A stretch of DNA of 45,039 bases from Pseudonocardiaceae bacterium (GTDB taxonomy: Bacteria > Actinomycetota > Actinomycetes > Mycobacteriales > Pseudonocardiaceae), in assembly GCA_036505275.1 (NCBI GenBank), contig DASXTS010000392.1, positions 1 through 45,039 on the forward strand, written 5' to 3'. The position numbers were made by a program, and so were the translations under genes. The stretch's first letter is position 1, and each line of letters opens with the position of its first letter. The notes under the pieces are model-generated. The model was not told where the DNA came from and made no database searches. It saw only the letters and a program-made list of their open reading frames with translations. This document shows positions 7,354-41,932 of this stretch, piece after piece.

Positions 7354-9417
7354 ATGGCCGACAGCGATGGGTTCGACCTGGACCACTACCTGTCCATCCC
7401 GCGGGTTGGCGGGCTGGCGCTGTCGCCGGACGGCGGTCGGCTGGTGGCGGCGGTGGCCGAGGTCGGACCGGACGGCAAGAAGTTCGTGACCGCGCTGTGG
7501 GAGATCGATCCGAGCGGCGAGCGGCCCGCGCGGCGGCTGACCAGGTCGGCGCCGGGGGAGAGCCATGGCGACTTCCTGCCGGACGGATCGCTGCTGTTCA
7601 CCTCCAAGCGGCCGGATCCGGACCTCGCGCCGCCCAAGGACGGCACGACGGAGAAGGACCGGGAGGCGGCGCTCTGGCTGCTGCCGGCCGGCGGCGAGGC
7701 GCGGGTGGTGGCCGACCCGCCGGGCGGCGTCGGCGTGGTCGCCGTCGCGCGGAACAGCGGCACGGTGGTGTACGGGGTGAACATGCTGCCGGGGGTGGCT
7801 GACCTGGCCGCGGACAAGGCCAAGGCCAAGGAGCGCCGGGACAAGGACGTCAAGGCGCAGCTGTTCGAGCAGTACCCGATCCGCAACTGGGACCACTATG
7901 TCGGCCCGCGGCAGATCCACCTGTGGGCGGCGGCGCCGCCGACGAGTGACGACGAGCGGCTCACCGACCAGCGCGATCTGACACCGGCGCCGGGCTGGGC
8001 GCTGGAGGACGCCGCCGTCGCGGTCACCCCCGACGGCGGCACCGCGGTGATGACCTCGCGGGCCGACGTGGCGGACCTGCTCGACCTGCGCGTCTCGCTG
8101 GTGGCAATAGAGACGGCGAGCGGCGCCCGGAGGGTGCTGGCCGACGACCCGGAGCACGAGTACGTACAGCCGGCGTGCTCGCCGGACGGGCGCTGGGTGG
8201 CGTGCGTGCGCGGCTACCGCGGCGGCTACCACGAGCCGAACGACCAGACGCTGTGGCTGATCGACCTGACCACCGGCGAGGGCCATGACCTGACACCTGA
8301 TTTGGACCTGTGGCCGCACTCGCCGGTGTGGTCGCAGGCCGGCGACGCGGTCTTCTTCTGTGCAGACATGGCCGGGCACGCCCCGGTGTTCCGGGTGGAC
8401 GTCGAGCCGGACGGCGGCGCCGGCAAGGTGACCAGGCTGACCGCCGCCGGGTCGTGGTCCTACGCGTGCCCCTCCTCGGACGGCACGGTGCTCTTCGCGC
8501 TGCGCGACGACTTCCTCAGCCCACCGCGGCCGTACCGGCTGGACGGACGGGCCGCCGACCAGGACGGCACCCCGTTGCCAGGCCCTGGCCTGCCGCTACG
8601 GGTGGCGCCGCCCGGCCGGGTCGAGTCGATCATCGCTACCGCCCGGGACGGCACCCAGATCCAATCCTGGCTGATGCTGCCGCCAGGAGCGTCCGCGGAC
8701 AACCCGACGCCGCTCGTCGTGTTCATCCACGGTGGCCCGTTGGCGTCCTGGCACGGCTGGCAGTGGCGCTGGAACCCGCAGTTGCTGGCCGCCAGAGGCT
8801 ATGCCGTGCTGATGCCCAACCCGGCGCTGTCCACCGGGTTCGGGCGGGACTTCGTCCGCCGTGGGCGCGGCCGGTGGGGATTCGAGCCGTACGCCGAGCT
8901 GATGGCCGCGGTCGACGCCGCGGTGGCCCGGCCGGACATCGACGCCGAGCGCACGGCGGCCATGGGCGGTTCGTTCGGCGGCTATATGGCCAACTGGGTC
9001 GCCGGGCACACCGACCGGTTCAAGTGCATCATCACGCACGCCGGCCTGTGGTCGCTGGACCAGTTCCACGGCAGCACCGACGTCGGGGTGTGGTGGGAGC
9101 GTGAGTTCGGCGACTTCTACGACGAGGACCGGCGCGAGCGGTACGTGGAGAACTCGCCGAACCGGCACATCGGCAAGATCACTACGCCGATGCTGGTGAT
9201 CCACGGCGAGCTGGACCACCGGGTGCCGATCAGCGAGGGCCTGCGGCTGTGGACCGATCTGCGCCGGCACGGCGTCGAGTCGAAGTTCCTCTACTTCCCC
9301 GACGAGAACCACTGGATCCTCAAGCCGAACAACATCGTGCTGTGGTACGGCACGGTGTTCGCCTGGCTGGACCACCACCTGCTCGGTGAGCCGTGGCACC
9401 GGCCGGAACTGGTGTGA
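7354..9417 (+). CDS. S9 family serine peptidase (prolyl oligopeptidase/acylaminoacyl-peptidase type)
   Basis: An N-terminal beta-propeller-like region is followed by a C-terminal hydrolase domain with GGSFGGYM and HGELDHRVP. The ATG directly follows the M20 stop codon. Confidence 0.85.
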   Translation: MADSDGFDLDHYLSIPRVGGLALSPDGGRLVAAVAEVGPDGKKFVTALWEIDPSGERPARRLTRSAPGESHGDFLPDGSLLFTSKRPDPDLAPPKDGTTEKDREAALWLLPAGGEARVVADPPGGVGVVAVARNSGTVVYGVNMLPGVADLAADKAKAKERRDKDVKAQLFEQYPIRNWDHYVGPRQIHLWAAAPPTSDDERLTDQRDLTPAPGWALEDAAVAVTPDGGTAVMTSRADVADLLDLRVSLVAIETASGARRVLADDPEHEYVQPACSPDGRWVACVRGYRGGYHEPNDQTLWLIDLTTGEGHDLTPDLDLWPHSPVWSQAGDAVFFCADMAGHAPVFRVDVEPDGGAGKVTRLTAAGSWSYACPSSDGTVLFALRDDFLSPPRPYRLDGRAADQDGTPLPGPGLPLRVAPPGRVESIIATARDGTQIQSWLMLPPGASADNPTPLVVFIHGGPLASWHGWQWRWNPQLLAARGYAVLMPNPALSTGFGRDFVRRGRGRWGFEPYAELMAAVDAAVARPDIDAERTAAMGGSFGGYMANWVAGHTDRFKCIITHAGLWSLDQFHGSTDVGVWWEREFGDFYDEDRRERYVENSPNRHIGKITTPMLVIHGELDHRVPISEGLRLWTDLRRHGVESKFLYFPDENHWILKPNNIVLWYGTVFAWLDHHLLGEPWHRPELV

Positions 9418-13351: not shown

Positions 13352-13364
13352 CCCAGGTCCGCCG

Positions 13365-13370
13365 TAGGCT
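13365..13370 (+). promoter_or_regulatory. -10 hexamer TAGGCT for the leaderless phosphomutase gene
   Basis: ccgTAGGCT-gcattcc-GTG, giving a 7-nt spacer to GTG 13378. Confidence 0.45.
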
Positions 13371-13377
13371 GCATTCC

Positions 13378-14094
13378 GTGGGCACCGTCATCCTGCTCCG
13401 GCACGCGCGGTCGACGGCGAACCAGTCCGGCGTGCTGGCCGGGCGGACGCCCGGCATCGGGCTGGACGAGCACGGCGTGGTCCAGGCGCAGGCCCTGGTG
13501 GCCCGGCTGGCCCCGGTGCCGCTTGCAGCAGTGGTGAGCTCCCCGGCACAGCGGTGCGTGGAGACGATCACGCCGCTGGTCACGGCGCGGGGGGTCGAGC
13601 CGAGTCTGGACGACCGGCTGGCCGAGGTGGACTACGGCCAGTGGACCTCGCAGCCGCTGCGCAGCCTGGTCAAGCACCCGCTGTGGAAGGTGGTGCAACT
13701 GCATCCGTCGGCGGCGGTGTTCCCCGACGGGGAGGGCCTGGCCGAGGTGCAGGCCCGTGCCGTCGCGGCCGTGCGGGAGTGGGACGCCAAGATCGCCGCA
13801 GGGCACGGCGCCGACGTGGTCTGGCTGGCCTGCAGCCACGGCGACGTGATCAAGGCCATCCTCGCCGACGCGCTCGGCCTGCACCTCGACTCCTTCCAGC
13901 GGATCATGATCGATCCCGGCTCGCTCAGCGTGGTGCACTACACCGAGACCCGCCCGTTCGTCTGGCGCACCAACGACTCGGGCGGGGAGCTGGCCGATCT
14001 CGCACCCCGGCCCAAGCGGCGACGGCGCCGCCCTCCGCGGCCGGCGTCCGACGCGGTAGTCGGCGGCGCAGTCGGTGGCCCTGTCGGCGCGTGA
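13378..14094 (+). CDS. histidine phosphatase family protein (MSMEG_4193-type putative phosphomutase)
   Basis: LLRHARSTAN (RHG motif) at the N-terminus and SHGDVIK later in the protein. The position next to the DUF3090/PI-kinase-like genes also fits. The track ORF (12724) starts far too early. Confidence 0.8.
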   Translation: MGTVILLRHARSTANQSGVLAGRTPGIGLDEHGVVQAQALVARLAPVPLAAVVSSPAQRCVETITPLVTARGVEPSLDDRLAEVDYGQWTSQPLRSLVKHPLWKVVQLHPSAAVFPDGEGLAEVQARAVAAVREWDAKIAAGHGADVVWLACSHGDVIKAILADALGLHLDSFQRIMIDPGSLSVVHYTETRPFVWRTNDSGGELADLAPRPKRRRRRPPRPASDAVVGGAVGGPVGA

Positions 14095-14226: not shown

Positions 14227-15264
14227 ATGATCGCCAGAGTGTCGCCGATCGATGTGGAGGGTGTGCGTGGTCCACCTTTCTCTGGTCGCCAACCGCAGGC
14301 GGGTGCGGGTGTGACCGCGGTGTCGGACGTGGCGTACAGCGTCAGGCCCGGATGGGGCGGAGTGCCGTTCGTGGTGCAGATCGTGCTGGAACAGCGCCTC
14401 GGCACCACGGTGGTCAACGCCGTGTCGCAGACCAGCGGGTTCGCCGCCGGGTTGGCGTCGAGGCTGGAGCTGGCCGACGGCGGCCGGGTGTTCGTCAAGG
14501 GTGTGCCGGCGGACCACCCGATGATCCCCAGCTACCACGCGGAGGCCTATGCGGCCAGTGGACTGCCGGAAGGAACCCCCGCGCCACTGCTGCTGGGCAC
14601 CGTTGACGACGAGTGGTTCCTGCTGGTGTTCGAGGACGTCGAGGGCCGCCACCCTGACCTGAGGCCCGGCTCGACGGACCTGCCCGCACTGCTGCGTGCG
14701 GTGGACACCACGCGGGCGCTGCTCACCCCGTGTCCGCTGTCAGCGCTGCGCACGGCGGACGCGGCGCTCGGCGCGCAGCTGTCCGGATGGGCGCATCTGC
14801 ACCAGTGGCAACCGCACGACCTGGACCGCTGGGCCCGGCGCAACCTCGACAAGCTGGTCGCCATGGAAAGCGCGTGGCGCCCCTGGTCGGCCGGGGACAC
14901 CATGCTGCACATGGACCTTCGGCCGGACAACGTCCTGATCCTGCCGGAGGACGCGGCCGCGGCGCTGGTCGACTGGGCGCACGCCATGCGCGGCGCACCC
15001 TGGCTGGAGCTGGCCAACCTGGTACCGCATCTGATCATCGGCGGGCACTCGCCGGCCGAGGCCGAGCTGGCCGTGCTGCATGGACCGGCGGTGGCTCGGG
15101 TGCCGGCCTGGGCGATCACCGGGTTCGCCGCCGCGGTCGCCGGCTACTGGGCGGCGGCCAGCCGACAGCCGTCCCCGCCGGGCGCGTACGGGCTGCGGGC
15201 GTTTCAGGCCACCGCGGCCGCGGCCGCCCTGACGTGGGTCGCCCACCGAACGAGGTGGCCATAA
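14227..15264 (+). CDS. aminoglycoside-phosphotransferase-fold (APH/ChoK-like) kinase; the start is uncertain
   Basis: Catalytic-loop LHMDLRPDNVLI (HxDxxxxN) followed by LVDWAHA. The start could be any of several ATG/GTG codons between 14227 and 14330. Confidence 0.7.
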   Translation: MIARVSPIDVEGVRGPPFSGRQPQAGAGVTAVSDVAYSVRPGWGGVPFVVQIVLEQRLGTTVVNAVSQTSGFAAGLASRLELADGGRVFVKGVPADHPMIPSYHAEAYAASGLPEGTPAPLLLGTVDDEWFLLVFEDVEGRHPDLRPGSTDLPALLRAVDTTRALLTPCPLSALRTADAALGAQLSGWAHLHQWQPHDLDRWARRNLDKLVAMESAWRPWSAGDTMLHMDLRPDNVLILPEDAAAALVDWAHAMRGAPWLELANLVPHLIIGGHSPAEAELAVLHGPAVARVPAWAITGFAAAVAGYWAAASRQPSPPGAYGLRAFQATAAAAALTWVAHRTRWP

Positions 15265-22163: not shown

Positions 22164-22216
22164 CCGGCCGGCTGTGCACCGTCCCACCGCGGCCACCAGC
22201 ACGCGGTCACCTGAGG

Positions 22217-22743
22217 ATGTTCCCGGCGGTGCTGCTGATCGGCTGCCTGGTGGTCGGCGCGGTCGGTGGCCCGTACGAGGGACGCCTCGACGAGGTGCAG
22301 CGCAACGACAACGCGGCGTGGCCTCCGGCCAGCGCCGAGAGCACCCAGGTCGCCGAGATCCAGAAGCGGTTCACCGACACGGAGATGCTGCCCGCGATCG
22401 CGGTGTACGAACGCCCCGGCGGGGTCACGCTCGCCGATACCGCCGCGGTGGCCACCCGGGCCAGGGCAGTGGCCGCCATCCTCGTGGTGGTCTTCGTCGT
22501 GCTCGCGCTGCTGCTGCGCGCCCTGGTCGCCCCGGTGCTGCTGATCGCCACGGTGGTGCTGTCCTTCGCGGCCACCATCGGCGTTTCGGCGCTGGTGTTC
22601 AACCACGTGTTCGACATCCCGCGTGCCGCCTTCCTGGTCGGCTTCGGGTGCTCCTCGACGCCCTCGTGGTGCGCTCGCTGCTGGTACCGGCGCTCACCGT
22701 GGACGTCGGCCCCCGCGTCTGGTGGCCCGCCCGGGTGGATTAG
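22217..22743 (+). pseudogene. collapsed MMPL/RND-type transporter remnant
   Basis: MMPL N-terminal periplasmic-loop sequence (VQRNDNAAWPPASAESTQVAEIQKRF...AVYERPGG) runs directly into late TM-helix sequence. After a frameshift it ends with the MMPL C-terminal motif [27 protein letters not shown]. The remnant totals about 175 codons, far shorter than my recollection of intact MMPL transporters (several hundred to ~1000 aa). Confidence 0.6.
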
Positions 22744-22788
22744 TCGTGAGTGGCAAATGGCGTTCTGGCACCATTTGCCACTCACGAC
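22743..22788. repeat. 46-bp inverted-repeat element, copy 1 (perfect 18-bp arms GTCGTGAGTGGCAAATGG, 10-nt centre)
   Basis: Read directly. The right arm ends 7 nt before the mshC -10 hexamer. Confidence 0.9.
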
Positions 22789-22795
22789 CCAGCCG

Positions 22796-22801
22796 TAGGC
22801 T
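22796..22801 (+). promoter_or_regulatory. -10 hexamer TAGGCT for leaderless mshC
   Basis: ccgTAGGCT-gagcctc-ATG, giving a 7-nt spacer to ATG 22809. Confidence 0.5.
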
Positions 22802-22808
22802 GAGCCTC

Positions 22809-24047
22809 ATGCGCTCATGGCCGACGGCGCCGGTACCGCGCCTGCCGGGCATGCCGCGGCCGCTGCGGCTGTACGACACCGCGACCGCGGCGCTGCGGCC
22901 GACCGCGCCGGGTCACACGGCCGGGATGTACGTCTGTGGCATCACGCCGTACGACGCCACTCATCTTGGGCACGCGGCCACCTACCTGGCGTTCGACCTG
23001 GTGCACCGGGTGTGGCTGGACAACGGGCACGACGTGCATTACGTGCAGAACGTCACCGACATCGATGACCCGCTGCTGGAGCGGGCCGAGCGCGACGGCG
23101 AGGACTGGATCGTGCTCGGCATGCGGGAGACGGCGCTGTTCCGCGAGGACATGGCGGCGCTGCGGGTGCTGGCGCCGCGGGACTACATCGGCGCGGTCGA
23201 GGCCATGCCGGAGATCATCGAGATGATCACCAAGCTGATCGCCTGCGGCGCGGCCTACCGGGTCGAAGACCCGACGTACCCGGACGTGTACCACGACCAC
23301 CGCGCGACCGCCGAGTTCGGCTACGTGTCGCGCTGCGACGAGGCCACCATGCGGCGGCTGTTCGCCGAGCGCGGTGGCGACCCCGACCGGCCGGGTAAGC
23401 GGCATCCGCTGGACGCGCTGCTCTGGCGGGTGGCCCGCGCCGGGGAGCCGTGTTGGGAGAGCGACCTGCGCGCCGGCCGGCCGGGCTGGCACGTGGAGTG
23501 CGCCGCGATCGCGATCAACCGCCTCGGCACCGGGTTCGACGTCCAGGGCGGCGGCAGCGACCTGGCCTTTCCGCACCACGAGTTCAGCGCGGCGCACGCC
23601 GAGGCGCTCACCAGCGACCACCCCTTCGCGCGCCACTACTGCCACGCCGGCATGATCGCCCTGAGCGGCGAGAAGATGTCCAAGTCGCGCGGCAACCTGG
23701 TCTTCGTCTCACGGCTGCGTGGCGAGGGCGTCGACCCCATGGCCATCCGCCTCGCCCTGCTGTCCGGCCACTGGCGCACCGACCGCTCGTGGACGCCCGA
23801 CCTGCTCGGTGCGGCCCACGACCGCCTGGCCCGCTGGCGCGAGGCCGTGTCACTGGACGCCGGCCCGGACGCCGCACCCCTGGTTTCCCGCCTGCGCGAC
23901 CACCTCGGCGACGACCTCGACACTCCCCGCGCGCTGGCCGCGGTGGACGCCTGGGCCGCCCACGCCCTCACTCGCCACGGCCGCGACGCCGCCGCCCCCG
24001 CTCTGGCCCGCACCGCCATCGACGCCCTCCTCGGCATCGCCCTCTAA
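22809..24047 (+). CDS. mshC: L-cysteine:1D-myo-inositol 2-amino-2-deoxy-alpha-D-glucopyranoside ligase
   Basis: CysRS-like class I core with [16 protein letters not shown] (HIGH motif) and KMSKSRGN, but no anticodon-binding extension. At 412 aa the length is typical of MshC. Confidence 0.9.
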
Positions 24048-24053
24048 CCCGGC

Positions 24054-24440
24054 GTGTCCGCGCGCCCCTACACGCGTGTCCGCGCGCCCGACCACGTGTG
24101 TCCGCGTGCCCGTACCGGCGTGTCCGCGTGCCCAGACACGTGTGTCCGCGTGCCCAGACACTTGTGTTGGCGCGTGCGGACACAGAGCGGGCCCAGGCGG
24201 CGCGAACATGTGCCAGTCGCGCGGACACGCCCGTCCGCGGACACGCCCATCCGGATTGGCGGACACGCCCATCCGGATTGGCGGACACGCGTTCAGATGC
24301 GGGGACGTACGCGTGCCGAAGCGCGGACACACGTGTCTGTTCGCGCGGACACGCGGTCGCACACCCACCGAACCGGAACTCATACAACCACGAACAGGTG
24401 TGTCGGAAGTCCCAGCTCATGTGTCCGAACACGCGGACAC
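24054..24440. repeat. phased 22-bp repeat array with core GTGTCCGCG: about 6 forward units followed by about 8 or more reverse units
   Basis: Forward cores start at 24054, 24076, 24098, 24120, 24142 and 24164 (degenerate), which is exactly 22 bp apart. Reverse cores (CGCGGACAC) are at 24220, 24236, 24258, 24280, 24322, 24344 and 24432, spaced 22 bp or multiples of it. The reverse half includes a 2.3 x perfect 22-mer, GGACACGCCCATCCGGATTGGC. Confidence 0.9.
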
Positions 24441-24453
24441 GCGGGAGACCGGG

Positions 24454-25374
24454 CTAGCGGCCGGGGCGGGACGGGGGCTGGGGGCCGAAGCCGCGGCCAC
24501 CGCCGTTACCGGGGCCACGGCGGCGTAGGTAGCGCTCGAACTCGGCCGCTATGGCGTCCCCAGACGCCTCCGTGAGGTTGAGCTCCGCGTCGCCGCGCTC
24601 CTCGAGGGAGCGCACGTAGTTCGAGACGTCCTCGTCCTCCTCGGCCATCTCCGAGACGGTGCGCTCCCACTCCTCGGCCTGCTCGGGCAGCGCCCCCAAG
24701 GGGACCTCGAGGTCGAGCACCTCCTCGACCCGGTGCAGCAGCGCCAGGGTCGCCTTGGGCGAGGGCGGCTGCGACACGTAGTGCGGCACCGCCGCCCAGA
24801 ACGAGATGGCCGGCACCCCGGACTGCACACAGGCGTCCTGGAACGCGCCGACAATCCCGGTCGGCCCCTCGTACCGGGATCGTTCCAACCCGAAGCGGGC
24901 CGCGGACGCCGCGTCGTAGGAGGTGCCGGTGACCGGCACCGGCCTGGTGTGCGGCGTGTCGGCGAGCAGTGCCCCCAACGACACCACGGTGGTGATGCTG
25001 AGCCGGTCGACGAAGGACAGCAGCTCCCGGCAGAACGCCCGCCACTTCATGTTGGGCTCGATGCCGTGCACCAGCACCACGTCGAACTCCGAGCCGGGCG
25101 GCCGGCACACCGCGAGCCGGGTGGTCGGCCAGACGATCCGGCGGGTGATCCCGTCGATCATGCGCACGGTCGGCCTGGTGACCTGGAAGTCGTAGTAGTC
25201 ATCCGGGTCGAGCTCGGCCAGCGGGGTGGCGTCCCAGGTCAGGTGCAGATGTTCGATCGCGGTGCTGGCCGCGTCGCCGGCGTCGTTCCAGCCCTCGAAC
25301 GCGGTCACCATGACCGGGTCGGTCAGCGAGGGCAGCTCGGATGAGCCAGCGCGGTCCGGCGAAGCATCTGTCAC
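24454..25374 (-). CDS. PAC2 (proteasome assembly chaperone 2) family protein
   Basis: MVTAFEGWNDAGDAAS... and the acidic C-terminal tail are typical of actinobacterial Rv2125-like PAC2 proteins. Confidence 0.8.
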   Translation of the reverse strand: MTDASPDRAGSSELPSLTDPVMVTAFEGWNDAGDAASTAIEHLHLTWDATPLAELDPDDYYDFQVTRPTVRMIDGITRRIVWPTTRLAVCRPPGSEFDVVLVHGIEPNMKWRAFCRELLSFVDRLSITTVVSLGALLADTPHTRPVPVTGTSYDAASAARFGLERSRYEGPTGIVGAFQDACVQSGVPAISFWAAVPHYVSQPPSPKATLALLHRVEEVLDLEVPLGALPEQAEEWERTVSEMAEEDEDVSNYVRSLEERGDAELNLTEASGDAIAAEFERYLRRRGPGNGGGRGFGPQPPSRPGR

Positions 25375-25380
25375 GCGGCC

Positions 25381-25386
25381 AGCCTA
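25381..25386 (-). promoter_or_regulatory. -10 hexamer TAGGCT for the leaderless PAC2 gene
   Basis: Minus strand: tcgTAGGCT-ggccgc-GTG, giving a 6-nt spacer to GTG 25374. Confidence 0.45.
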
Positions 25387-25403
25387 CGACCATGGCGAGT
25401 CTC

Positions 25404-31260: not shown

Positions 31261-31306
31261 GTCGTGAGTGGAATGCAGCGCTATGGCAACGCTTTCTGGT
31301 CACGAC
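31261..31306. repeat. 46-bp inverted-repeat element, copy 2 (divergent: termini GTCGTGAGTGG ... GTCACGAC are conserved)
   Basis: It has the same length and the same terminal heptamer GTCGTGA/TCACGAC as copies 1 and 3, but the interior differs. Confidence 0.6.
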
Positions 31307-31307
31307 C

Positions 31308-31313
31308 TATGGT
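31308..31313 (+). promoter_or_regulatory. -10 hexamer TATGGT for the leaderless LolA/RseB-like gene
   Basis: cTATGGT-cggctg-GTG, giving a 6-nt spacer to GTG 31320. Confidence 0.4.
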
Positions 31314-31319
31314 CGGCTG

Positions 31320-32453
31320 GTGTCCGGGACGGTGGTGAGGTGGCACCGCTGGCGGCGCTGGCTGGCGGTCGCGGCCGGCGCCGCCACGCTGCTGGCAGTC
31401 CCTGCGGTGGTGCACCGGCTGCCGACTCGATCAGCGGCCGAGCCGAGCGTCCAGGTGCTGCGCGAGCGGGTGCTCGCCTCGGGCGGGCAGCCGTACGCCG
31501 GTTACGCGGAGAGCATCGGACAGCTCGGGATGCCGCCGCTGCCCCAGCTCGCCGACGTTGCGACCCTGCTCAGCGGCACGGTCCGGGTACGGGCCTGGTA
31601 CGCGGCGCCGGACCGGTGGCGGGTCGACATGCTCACCACGGCCGGCGAGCGCGGCACCTACCGGGTCGGCGGCACCGAGCTGGTCTGGGACTACGAGGAC
31701 GACCGGCTCACCGGCATCATCGGCCCGGTGGCGGTGCGGCCGCCGAGGGCCGCCGACCTGCTGCCGCCGGAGTTGGCGCGCAGGCTGCTGGGTCTCGCGG
31801 CGGGCGACCCGGTCACAGCGCTGCCGCCGCGGCGGGTGGCCGGCATCGATGCGGCCGGCCTGCGGCTGACCCCGAGCGACCCGTCGACCACGGTCGGCGC
31901 CGTCGAGGTGTGGGCCGAACCGGCGAGCGGGCTACCGCTGCAGGTGCAGGTGACGGCCCGCGGCGCGGACCGCCCGGTGCTGGTAAGCCGGCTGCTCGAG
32001 GTCAGCATGGCGGCCCCGCCGGCTGCGGTGCTGCGGCCCTCGCCCGGGCCGGGCTCGGCGGTCGACACCGTTAATGCCGCCGAGGTCGCCGGCGTGCTGC
32101 GCGGCCTCGGCTCGGCCACGCTGCCGGCCCGGCTCGCCGGCCGCGACCTGGTCATTCCGTCGGCCGACCTTCCCTCGGTCGGCCGCTACGGCGACGGCCT
32201 CGCCGGCTTCGTGGTCGTGCCGCTCGGTCGCGGGCTGAGCACCCGGCTGCTCGACGGGGCCCGTAGCGCCGGGGCCGTGGACCTGACAACGCCGAGCATC
32301 GCCACCGCGGTGCGGCTGCAGACCCCGGCGCAGACTCCGCTGCTGACCGTGGTCGTGGTCCGGGTGCGCCGGCTGGGCTACCTGATGGCCGGCGCGGTCA
32401 CCGCACCGGTGCTCGAGCAGGCCGCCGCCGAGCTCGCCGGCGGCAACGAATGA
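31320..32453 (+). CDS. membrane-anchored LolA/RseB-like (lipoprotein-carrier-fold) protein
   Basis: One N-terminal TM segment (WLAVAAGAATLLAVPAVV). It is followed by ...YAGYAES.G.L..P.LP........LL.G....R.WY..PD.WRVD, which resembles MucB/RseB/LolA-like N-domains. The gene is translationally coupled to the ABC ATPase. Confidence 0.5.
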   Translation: MSGTVVRWHRWRRWLAVAAGAATLLAVPAVVHRLPTRSAAEPSVQVLRERVLASGGQPYAGYAESIGQLGMPPLPQLADVATLLSGTVRVRAWYAAPDRWRVDMLTTAGERGTYRVGGTELVWDYEDDRLTGIIGPVAVRPPRAADLLPPELARRLLGLAAGDPVTALPPRRVAGIDAAGLRLTPSDPSTTVGAVEVWAEPASGLPLQVQVTARGADRPVLVSRLLEVSMAAPPAAVLRPSPGPGSAVDTVNAAEVAGVLRGLGSATLPARLAGRDLVIPSADLPSVGRYGDGLAGFVVVPLGRGLSTRLLDGARSAGAVDLTTPSIATAVRLQTPAQTPLLTVVVVRVRRLGYLMAGAVTAPVLEQAAAELAGGNE

Positions 32454-40748: not shown

Positions 40749-40794
40749 GTCGTGAGTGGCAAATGGTGCTCCAACACCAATTGCCAGTCACAGG
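40749..40794. repeat. 46-bp inverted-repeat element, copy 3 (17-bp arms with 2 mismatches)
   Basis: GTCGTGAGTGGCAAATGGTG-ctccaa-CACCAATTGCCAGTCACAGG. The first 18 nt are identical to copy 1. Confidence 0.85.
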
Positions 40795-40800
40795 CAGCCG

Positions 40801-40806
40801 TAGGCT
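40801..40806 (+). promoter_or_regulatory. -10 hexamer TAGGCT for the leaderless M50 protease gene
   Basis: ccgTAGGCT-gcccctc-ATG, giving a 7-nt spacer to ATG 40814. Confidence 0.5.
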
Positions 40807-40813
40807 GCCCCTC

Positions 40814-41932
40814 ATGATGGACGCCGGCGACGGCGAGCTGCGGGTGGCCCGGGTGTTCGGGGTGCCGGTGCTGCTCAGCCCGTCCTGGTGGCTCGGCGCG
40901 CTGGTGATCACGGTGGCCTACCTGCCGGTGGTGCGGGCCGTGCTGCCGGACGTCGACGACCTGGCCGCGCTGGCCGTCGCGGTGGGCATGGCCGTGCTGC
41001 TCGCCGCGTCGGTGCTGGCCCACGAGTTGGGACACTGCGCGGTCGCGTTGCGGCTCGGGCTGCCGGTGCGGCGGGTGCGGCTGTTCCTGCTCGGCGGGGT
41101 GTCGGAGCTGGCCAGGCCGCCGCTTCGGCCACGGGACGATGCGCTGATCGCGGCGGCCGGTCCGGCGGTGTCGGTGGCCGTCGCGGCGCTCGCGGCCGCG
41201 GTCGCGGTCGCCGCGGACCCCGGGACCGTGGAATGGCTGCTCGCCGTCCAGCTCGCGATCACCAACGCCGTGGTGGCGGCGTTCAACCTGCTGCCCGGCC
41301 TGCCGCTGGACGGCGGCCGGATACTGCGCGCCGCGGTGTGGTCGGCCACCGGCAACCGCGGGCTCGGCAGCCGCGGTGCCGCCGTCGGCGGCGTGCTGGT
41401 CGGCGTCCTTCTGGTGGGCTGGGGCCTCGCCGCGCTCGGCAGCGGCGCGCCAGGGTCGTGGTTGCAGTTCGGCGTCGCCGCGCTGATGGCGTGGTATGTG
41501 CTGGCCGGGGCGTTCGCCGAGCTCGGCCGGCAGCGCCGGCCGGCGGCCGCGGTGCCGCTGATCGGCCTGGTGCAGCCGCTACTGCAGCTGCCTGCGGAGA
41601 GCCCGATCTCCGACGCGCTGTACGCGGCGGCTGGCCGCGGTGTGCTGCTGGTGCGGCCGGACGGGGTGGCCGCCGGCCTGCTCGACCCTCGGGCCGCGGC
41701 CGAGCTGGCCGGACACGCGCCGCTGGCGCCGGCCGGTGGCGCCGCCCACCCGGTGGCGCCGGACGCCGTGCTGCTGGACTCCGAGCTGCGCGGTGACCCC
41801 GCGGCCGCGCTCGAGCGCCTGCAGGCCAGCCCTGCTTGGCAGTTCCTGGTGGTCGACGCCGACGGCCGGCCGGCCGGAGTGCTGCGCCGGGCCGACGTGT
41901 ACGCCACCCTTGCCGAGCACCGCCGCTGGTAA
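40814..41932 (+). CDS. M50 (site-2 protease family) membrane metallopeptidase with a C-terminal CBS-like region
   Basis: HELGH zinc motif within a TM helix and a second motif NLLPGLPLDGG. The C-terminal soluble region ends in ...FLVVDADGRPAGVLRRADV (CBS-like). Confidence 0.8.
   Translation: MMDAGDGELRVARVFGVPVLLSPSWWLGALVITVAYLPVVRAVLPDVDDLAALAVAVGMAVLLAASVLAHELGHCAVALRLGLPVRRVRLFLLGGVSELARPPLRPRDDALIAAAGPAVSVAVAALAAAVAVAADPGTVEWLLAVQLAITNAVVAAFNLLPGLPLDGGRILRAAVWSATGNRGLGSRGAAVGGVLVGVLLVGWGLAALGSGAPGSWLQFGVAALMAWYVLAGAFAELGRQRRPAAAVPLIGLVQPLLQLPAESPISDALYAAAGRGVLLVRPDGVAAGLLDPRAAAELAGHAPLAPAGGAAHPVAPDAVLLDSELRGDPAAALERLQASPAWQFLVVDADGRPAGVLRRADVYATLAEHRRW

Follow-up and report, generated by a model that had tools for sequence, protein, structure and literature searches.

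A 46-nt palindrome which stands directly ahead of mshC, in DNA of a Pseudonocardiaceae bacterium (assembly GCA_036505275.1, contig DASXTS010000392.1, positions 1 to 45,039; this full 45,039-nt stretch is here ‘the window’), is one copy of a large, dispersed family of conserved, 46-nt gene-boundary hairpins, a family found in Pseudonocardiaceae along with a few copies in Nocardiaceae. The family apparently is undescribed but is of the kind represented by repetitive extragenic palindromic (REP) sequences and by TRIT, the ‘Tuberculosis Rho-independent terminator’. Judging from sequence, these hairpins probably are transcribed along with the upstream gene and then play some role at RNA 3′ ends. 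The window is an entire metagenomic contig from an uncultured organism and possesses three copies, referred to as copies 1, 2, and 3, with copy 1 (22743 to 22788) the one found in front of mshC. Labels such as L123 denote loci or contigs of relatives that were fetched for comparison. An earlier note on this DNA had described copy 1 as belonging to a three-member, promoter-associated element. Three is indeed the number of copies in the window, but the family as a whole comes to at least 120 loci.

Copy 1 and Its Edges

Copy 1 reads GTCGTGAGTGGCAAATGG-cgttctggca-CCATTTGCCACTCACGAC, that is, 46 nt consisting of perfect, 18-bp arms about a 10-nt center, exactly as had been claimed. Its outer arms are GTCGTGAGTGG and CCACTCACGAC, no strand is assigned to it, and it scores 64 bits on both strands with the family’s covariance model. 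Arms of this length are far beyond chance since, over 30 first-order Markov shuffles of the window, the longest perfect arms ranged only from 9 to 13 bp. With three or fewer mismatches allowed, the copy-1 18-mer occurs three times in the window versus an expected 0.05, and folding of copy 1 gives −42.7 and −46.8 kcal/mol on the two strands (z = −5.7 and −8.6, respectively).

The left edge falls, as also had been noted, on the last base of a stop codon. That codon, TAG at 22741 to 22743, closes the ancestral C-terminal frame (...VWWPARVD*) of a frameshifted MMPL remnant (open reading frame, or ORF, 22174 to 22743, plus strand), with the first G of copy 1 thus serving as well as the last base of the TAG. 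The Joint Genome Institute (JGI) gene call for this remnant (Pfam MMPL) follows a different frame, one which crosses the palindrome to 22798 and ends, in the wrong frame, at a TAG within the mshC −10 region. It is because the JGI call and the ancestral C-terminal frame differ that the gene is viewed as frameshifted.

To the right of the palindrome lies CAGCCGTAGGCTG (22790 to 22802, plus strand), a 13-mer which is the lineage’s leaderless −10 motif and which also is foldable as a small CAGCC/GGCTG hairpin. Its −10 hexamer, TAGGCT at 22796 to 22801, is found 7 nt past the palindrome and 7 nt ahead of the mshC ATG at 22809, both distances being as originally reported. The mshC gene itself (22809 to 24047, plus strand; Pfam tRNA-synt_1e) encodes 412 aa, and the ATG at 22809 is taken to be its start since MshC homologs are also 412 aa in length. 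From the 7-nt distance between −10 and ATG, a leaderless mshC transcript may be inferred. The same 13-mer is seen at 40795 to 40807 and in L070 at 7541 to 7553. Scanning 22500 to 23000 for terminators returned no intrinsic terminator.

A Dispersed Family

A pattern scan of one genome per species, using GTCGTGAGTGG-N26-28-STCACRRS, returned at least 120 loci. Nearly all of those listed are from Amycolatopsis, Pseudonocardia, Saccharopolyspora, Kibdelosporangium, or unnamed Pseudonocardiaceae, with two Rhodococcus-group genomes plus one evident chance match making up the remainder, and single genomes among them supply several loci, i.e., up to five or more. Length is nearly fixed, as 172 of the 175 matches listed are exactly 46 nt although the pattern allowed for 45 to 47 nt. 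Copy density in the window and its relatives is roughly one per 15 to 20 kb. In the window, the covariance model recovers exactly three copies, with the next-best score only 14 bits (E = 0.2). The flanking genes are unrelated: an all-against-all BLAST of the ORFs in 120 loci, looking for a recurring neighbor gene, found no dominant family.

Nor was the family met with under some other name in the sources that were consulted. Against the window, Rfam 15 at its gathering threshold gave only a tRNA and, with E allowed up to 10, only generic microRNA-precursor hairpin models, all far below threshold and TRIT not among them. A full-text literature search with the 10- and 11-mers of the arms came upon only unrelated primer matches, and nothing relevant was found in the literature on Amycolatopsis palindromic repeats or on REPINs and REP-associated tyrosine transposases (RAYTs) in Actinobacteria. 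A plasmid BLAST with the Amycolatopsis consensus gave no matches, a result to which little weight can be attached since, with the inner stem variable, not enough alignable sequence remains.

What is conserved in these hairpins, and what is not, can be seen from an alignment (A2) of 116 distinct copies. The outer 11 bp of each arm (GTCGTGAGTGG…CCACTCAC) are essentially invariant, and that invariance extends to positions which the search pattern had left unfixed, e.g., the CCA preceding CTCAC. The inner 8 to 9 bp of each arm vary between copies yet remain complementary. The 21-bp helix thus is 89.7% paired, with nine of its pairs changed on both sides. At pair 33-46, for instance, 38 copies have AU, another 38 have CG, and 21 have GC. 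Covariation as high as that observed was seen in none of 500 shuffles, and controls employing slid partners were only 35 to 42% paired versus 70% for the structure as given. Orthologous copies at the M50 protease gene (copy 2, below) also have both arms changed together, with CAAATGGTG/CACCAATTG in the window and CAAAGGGCG/CGCCCTTTG in L129. As the inner arms co-vary, it is a structure, i.e., a hairpin, which is being maintained, rather than the sequence of a whole duplex as contacted by a protein. The bases flanking the core tend to be complementary as well (G…C in 60 of the 116) rather than directly repeated.

For the genes to either side, coding strand and frame were called from the G + C content of third codon positions (GC3) and the rule that GC1 exceeds GC2, as checked against JGI gene calls. 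Both sides could be classified for 110 copies from across the family: 65 (59%) lie between convergent genes, 43 between co-directional genes, and 2 (2%) between divergent genes. In the kind of positional tally that the earlier note had called for, copies thus are strongly depleted from divergent promoter regions (65 tail-tail and 43 tandem versus 2 head-head). It is gene ends, instead, that are found close by. Approximately 63% of the 182 gene ends which face an element stop within 25 nt, including 32 that stop at the element’s own TGA (positions 5 to 7), 44 that stop 0 to 10 nt away, and 29 that stop 11 to 25 nt away. Among stops found inside of the element, 32 are at −7 versus 10 at all other internal positions.

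The family is not uniform in its anatomy. Many Amycolatopsis copies (L017, L020, L037, L042, L080, L088, and others) are extended on both sides, by GGTCTGCCGCAGCT … AGCTGCGGCAGACC, giving rise to palindromes of approximately 74 bp which occupy the whole of the gap between convergent genes. An asymmetric subfamily, GTCGTGAGTGGyAyGGCCGGTTmkAACCGGyCwrAACACTCACGAS, has a right inner arm which is unpaired with the left, and is seen in several Amycolatopsis species plus Rhodococcus rhodnii (loci L012, L014, L027, L030, L032, L039, L043, L060, L097, and L113). In Amycolatopsis intergenic regions of L096 (3890 to 3960 and 4385 to 4445) and L058 (6440 to 6900), the element is found beside other, unrelated long palindromes with shared flanks, looking there as though several repeat families nest together.

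The Polar Unit of the Window’s Lineage

A metagenome scan using the copy-1 18-mer supplied 52 distinct actinobacterial copies (loci L149 to L217), referred to here as the lineage set. In 47 of these 52, a box, YTRTCCACAG (with no more than one mismatch), directly follows an end of GTCGTGAG type, the opposite end being CCYGTGAG (e.g., L207 12091 to 12146 and L179 7301 to 7357). The unit is polar also in its orientation, with 29 copies reading stop, hairpin, box, and then start versus 8 which are reversed (p = 0.0008), and 22 of 39 upstream genes terminate at the element’s TGA. What comes next varies. For 11 of the 52 it is a TANNNT −10 followed after 5 to 8 nt by a start codon, i.e., genes that are putatively leaderless, with most of these copies carrying CCGTAGGCTG. 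Another 11 have, after the box, a GGAG-type ribosome-binding site plus start codon, while for others the downstream start is farther off.

The box variants seen in those 47 copies are TTATCCACA, TTGTCCACA, CTGTCCACA, or CTATCCACA. High-affinity DnaA boxes include TTATCCACA in Escherichia coli as well as TTGTCCACA in Mycobacterium tuberculosis and Streptomyces coelicolor (PMC4285127, Table 1). In 328 kb of lineage contigs, 52 of the 58 such 9-mers are attached to an element, versus an estimated 4 or so expected from base composition, though this is a biased comparison as the contigs were selected for carrying the element. A tandem, second box is present in L180, L185, and L187. By contrast, the box is found in 0 of 123 copies from other genera, and none of the three window copies possesses it intact. 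Copy 1, which has TAATCCACC, displays a degenerate flank box, GGGTGGATTA (reverse complement TAATCCACCC; 22733 to 22742, minus strand), one that is overlapped by the MMPL-remnant stop and that sits where the lineage’s YTRTCCACAG belongs. In the L126 ortholog of copy 1 there is at this place a perfect box, TTATCCACA (TGTGGATAA). The lineage box may be a DnaA site, a site recognized by an enzyme that copies the unit, or coincidental.

Orthologous Sites and a Separable Promoter

The mshC copy is conserved in L123 and L126 (MshC 86% and 85% identical, respectively), with −10 and start unchanged. The comparison of mshC upstream regions that had been suggested thus finds the copy to be kept in both relatives but the surrounding upstream DNA to be unalignable and the upstream gene to be different: the MMPL gene is absent from L123, and in L126 a 347-aa gene takes its place. 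Elsewhere, sites are filled or empty depending on the relative. At the M50 protease gene, palindrome plus CAGCCGTAGGCTG are present in L129 (87% protein identity) as they are in the window, whereas L130 (78% protein identity) has CAGCCGTAGGCT plus start codon with no palindrome. The copy 3 site is empty in L123, where there is an orthologous, 32-nt intergenic region.

The promoter motif has a distribution of its own. That is, CGTAGGCT, followed after 6 or 7 nt by a start codon, recurs in the lineage at mshC, the M50 protease gene, PAC2, dop, and a phosphatase-like gene. Sites of this form, ending with ATG or GTG, are found in the window at 13359 to 13380, 25370 to 25388 (minus strand), 22794 to 22811, and 40799 to 40816, and in L129 at 14914 to 14935. 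The motif is unusually long and invariant, and at these genes it is conserved in relatives with or without the element, being found without it at PAC2, dop, the phosphatase gene, and the M50 gene of L130. Promoter and element therefore are separable, and carriage of the promoter by the element is not demonstrated. It is possible, going by the 11 of 52 lineage copies in which a −10 follows the box in the same register, that the unit does carry a promoter. An abutting of element and promoter is, in any case, to be expected where few bases lie between a stop codon and the next gene’s signals. A separate idea, that the 13-mer CAGCCGTAGGCTG is part of the palindrome, was rejected, with CGTAGGCT instead the lineage’s general −10 motif and CAG the end of the flank box.

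A Probable Role at RNA 3′ Ends, and Its Rivals

A hairpin acting at transcript 3′ ends is the reading that is preferred here, one which may be rated as fairly probable. The unit, that is, would form the tail of the upstream gene’s transcript and would fold into an RNA hairpin that defines, protects, or insulates the transcript’s 3′ end. As there is no U-tract, either a factor which reads the conserved stem base probably helps or the hairpin works instead via processing or stability. New copies would arise through some copying mechanism which recognizes the conserved stem plus flank, with the symmetry of the palindrome kept by arm-to-arm correction. The mshC copy then would be the 3′-end element of a decayed MMPL gene, with an ordinary leaderless mshC promoter (CGTAGGCT-N7-ATG) beginning directly after it. 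At mshC the element at most would shield that promoter from read-through and occupy its −35 region. DnaA acting as a roadblock in place of a U-tract was considered as well but rejected, as polymerase, to go by known roadblock distances, would stall before the 3′ arm had been transcribed.

That the hairpin matters in the sense transcript is suggested by the stem mismatches (positions 3 to 20) of lineage copies in the stop-hairpin-box-start orientation, which are 46 G·U versus 3 A·C, though this is a count of non-independent events. Various points weigh against the 3′-end role. No T-rich tract follows the hairpin, the 12 nt downstream being 13% T, i.e., background, and mycobacterial RNA polymerase is reported to require a U-rich tract for intrinsic termination (PMC3993855). 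In co-directional contexts outside of the window’s lineage, stem mismatches are 15 G·U versus 14 A·C, i.e., with no G·U excess, which leaves room for a role at the level of DNA. Lineage copies with a ribosome-binding site directly after them must be transcribed through and thus are not efficient terminators. All three window copies adjoin a −10, which is above the approximately 21% of the lineage sample, and two of the three (copies 2 and 3) are in divergent regions, where there is no upstream gene to terminate. The gene contexts described above, moreover, are from a home-made GC3/GC1-GC2 frame caller rather than from annotation, and no enzyme able to copy the element was found among the ORFs of the approximately 1.4 Mb of loci.

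An absence of G·U excess in the wider family is what one would expect should these hairpins be selfish repeats without host function, of REP/RAYT or miniature inverted-repeat transposable element (MITE) type, an explanation that is possible though doubtful. A single-copy transposase would copy the stem base together with an asymmetric flank (YTRTCCACAG here) in single-stranded DNA, and copies would survive only where harmless, i.e., at gene ends or between a stop and the next start signals. REP sequences and IS200/IS605 ends likewise consist of a hairpin with a conserved, one-sided flank, the family is dispersed as several copies per genome amid unrelated neighbors, copies are present or absent between relatives, and abutment with stop and start signals is expected if tight junctions leave few permissive bases. 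Tolerance alone, however, does not explain the stop-frame preference, i.e., 32 at −7 versus 10 elsewhere inside, and the outer arms are identical across genera and at orthologous sites over approximately 15% protein divergence, for which continued selection or continued conversion is needed. Direct target-site duplications, furthermore, are not visible, with flanking bases tending instead to be complementary, and phmmer searches of the approximately 1.4 Mb of loci ORFs, using IS608 TnpA and E. coli RayT as approximate queries, gave no Y1-transposase match, which is weak as an argument given that RAYTs are single-copy.

Two further explanations have proteins bound to the DNA. In one, the lineage box would be a genuine DnaA box, such that elements titrate DnaA or place promoters under DnaA control, and the palindrome would form an extruded cruciform or be bound by a structural protein, as gyrase and integration host factor bind at E. 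coli REP/bacterial interspersed mosaic element (BIME) clusters. The near-constant placing of the box directly after the lineage hairpins, its identity with high-affinity DnaA boxes, the attachment to elements of most such 9-mers, and the tandem second boxes all are consistent with this, as is the position of the box in promoter-type copies, directly ahead of the −10, from which a bound protein would influence initiation. The explanation nonetheless is quite unlikely: other genera lack the box entirely, the window copies lack it in intact form, the enrichment comes from contigs that were chosen for carrying the element, and the 9-mer match may be coincidental to a transposase’s recognition site. 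Also unlikely is a broader version, in which the repeat of this uncultured lineage would be a portable gene-boundary cassette consisting of stop codon, hairpin, genuine high-affinity DnaA box, and sometimes a leaderless −10, the spread of which would have put many intergenic junctions and promoters, the mshC and M50 protease ones among them, beside DnaA sites. Such a cassette, if real, would tie the replication initiator to transcript boundaries and would buffer free DnaA. In the other explanation, which was that of the earlier note, the palindrome would be a dedicated operator, bound as duplex by a dimeric or tetrameric regulator, with a small regulon of mshC, M50 protease, and 377-aa-protein promoters. 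All three window copies do end 1 to 7 nt upstream of the −10 hexamer of a putative leaderless gene, the spacing of the mshC copy to its −10 is unchanged in two relatives, and the right arm does offer TTGCCA (22775 to 22780) at the position of a −35. That hexamer, though present as had been stated, is not kept by the L070 copy, and the distance from it to the −10 ranges from 14 to 21 nt among copies. The copies, too, have unrelated genes as neighbors and mostly sit at the 3′ ends of genes and in convergent gaps (59% convergent, 2% divergent), the inner arms co-vary rather than being conserved, with only the outer 11 bp fixed, the M50 gene of L130 possesses the same −10 motif but no palindrome, L123 is empty at the copy 3 site, and no adjacent regulator gene was found among the window genes beside elements. 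An operator thus is very improbable, and the claim is not retained.

Comparison with Known Systems

By description, the system that comes closest to a gene-boundary hairpin such as this is TRIT, to which the family is treated as analogous, with the comparison made solely against TRIT’s description. TRIT is present as approximately 147 copies per genome, is mostly bidirectional, and has been reported as confined to Mycobacterium (Gardner et al. 2011, Nucleic Acids Research; PMC3152330). Both are palindromic hairpins which are conserved in sequence as well as structure, are tied to gene ends, and lack a canonical U-tract, and for both function is putative. TRIT typically starts inside of coding sequence at about −8 (PMC3152330), while here the peak is at −7, or −8 if a frequent extra G-C pair is counted. 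TRIT predictions overlap only 2 to 4% of mapped 3′ ends (bioRxiv 10.1101/2022.06.01.494293). A one-sided box and polar arrangement, as seen in the window’s lineage, have not been described for TRIT. No copy is recovered by the family model (R1) from 66 kb of M. tuberculosis plus Mycolicibacterium DNA, this belonging to a sample fetched via IS6110 and relatives (approximately 28 kb of M. tuberculosis and approximately 60 kb of Mycolicibacterium) and mostly rich in insertion sequences (ISs). The only strong gene-end palindrome in that sample is different in sequence (TGCGCGAGCAGACGCAAAATCGCCC…) and is 66 nt long, found in L133 at 2658 to 2723. This M. tuberculosis palindrome (TGCGCGAGCAGACGCAAAATCGCCCGAAAACC…) has on one side the stop codon of a gene for an iron-sulfur subunit and on the other a PIN-domain gene that is convergent with it, and is possibly a TRIT.

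Other systems share certain features with the family, but each also fails in at least one defining feature. REP sequences and REPINs, with their RAYTs, as found in Enterobacteria and Pseudomonas, are likewise short extragenic palindromes which occur in many copies, mostly at gene 3′ ends, with a conserved head beside the hairpin, long vertical persistence, and compensatory maintenance of the hairpin. Here, however, there is no GTAG head, there being instead a YTRTCCACAG flank in the window’s lineage and none in other genera, and the hairpins are single, with 20- to 21-bp stems, rather than REP doublets or BIME clusters. Within a single genome, inner stems also vary much more from copy to copy than in a REPIN population, the host phylum is different, and no RAYT was found in the approximately 1.4 Mb of loci by the phmmer searches above. 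With MITEs, the family shares presence versus absence at orthologous sites but not terminal inverted repeats with direct target-site duplication, the whole of the unit being instead one palindrome. The alternative that had been offered to an operator, a MITE-type mobile element carrying an outward-facing promoter, accordingly holds up as to there being a dispersed repeat which is present or absent between relatives, while promoter carriage is only a possibility and no direct target-site duplication is to be seen.

Mycobacterial interspersed repetitive units (MIRUs) are not known to be palindromic, are often tandemly repeated, and carry short ORFs. They reportedly were described by Supply and colleagues, in 1997, as residing between co-directional genes, with upstream stop and downstream start signals at or inside of their ends. 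The window lineage’s unit is polar and has this same placement of stop and start, whereas the element here is a single hairpin. Intrinsic terminators too are stable, GC-rich hairpins located right after stop codons, with the hairpin here usable both ways between convergent genes. They differ in that here there is no U-tract, some copies lie directly ahead of a ribosome-binding site, and sequence is conserved over hundreds of sites and several genera, beyond what termination needs. With transcription-factor operators, the expectation is of limited promoter sites from a coherent regulon, as opposed to at least 120 loci beside unrelated genes.

Significance

Annotators of Pseudonocardiaceae genomes, i.e., Amycolatopsis, Pseudonocardia, and Saccharopolyspora, many of which are antibiotic producers, will find 46-nt palindromes at many gene boundaries. 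These elements supply the stop codons of many genes, can lead gene callers astray (the read-through MMPL call being one case), and could pass for operators. The TRIT-like pattern, that is, a sequence-conserved hairpin which lacks a U-tract and which starts just inside of coding sequence, is not, as this family shows, confined to Mycobacterium, and the purpose of such hairpins, along with the protein that would read their conserved stem, can now be studied in a second system. For the question of how transcription terminates in high-GC actinobacteria, the family supplies hosts which are easily cultured and genetically tractable.

Other Window Copies and the mshC–PAC2 Spacer

Copy 2 (40749 to 40794, plus strand; 57 bits with the covariance model) is imperfect, with 15 of 20 arm positions pairing, and is flanked by two divergent genes, one for a PD-(D/E)XK nuclease and the other for the M50 protease. 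It is followed (40795 to 40816, plus strand) by CAGCCGTAGGCTG, with its −10 TAGGCT at 40801 to 40806, then 7 nt, and then the M50 protease ATG at 40814, which is where the gene caller’s product P0121 (372 aa) begins. The recurrence, with a single gap, of the whole 69-bp stretch from palindrome to ATG at 40749 to 40816 is as had been reported, but identity with copy 1 is 57 of 69 rather than 56 of 69.

Copy 3 (31261 to 31306, plus strand), of the same length, is degenerate: its termini are conserved whereas its interior pairs poorly (folding z = −1.4; 42 bits with the covariance model). Its neighbors likewise are divergent, with a P450 gene to one side and a gene for a 377-aa membrane protein to the other. 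That it is a third copy is confirmed by the shared 11-mer GTCGTGAGTGG together with GTCACGAC at an unchanged, 27-nt spacing, by 67% identity over 43 nt, and by its covariance-model score. After it (31308 to 31322, plus strand) come a −10-like hexamer, TATGGT at 31308 to 31313, 6 nt, and the GTG at 31320 with which the JGI call of the 377-aa gene starts.

On the other side of mshC, this gene and PAC2 are convergent and, from the mshC stop onward, are separated by a 400-bp spacer (24049 to 24450) which contains about six direct copies of a 22-bp unit (GTGTCCGCGTGCCCAGACACGT) and, farther along, about eight copies of the inverted core CGCGGACAC, these partly at a 22-bp period. As the corresponding L123 spacer is only 30 bp, the arrays are viewed as an insertion. 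The spacer as a whole resembles two facing arrays of a putative binding site.

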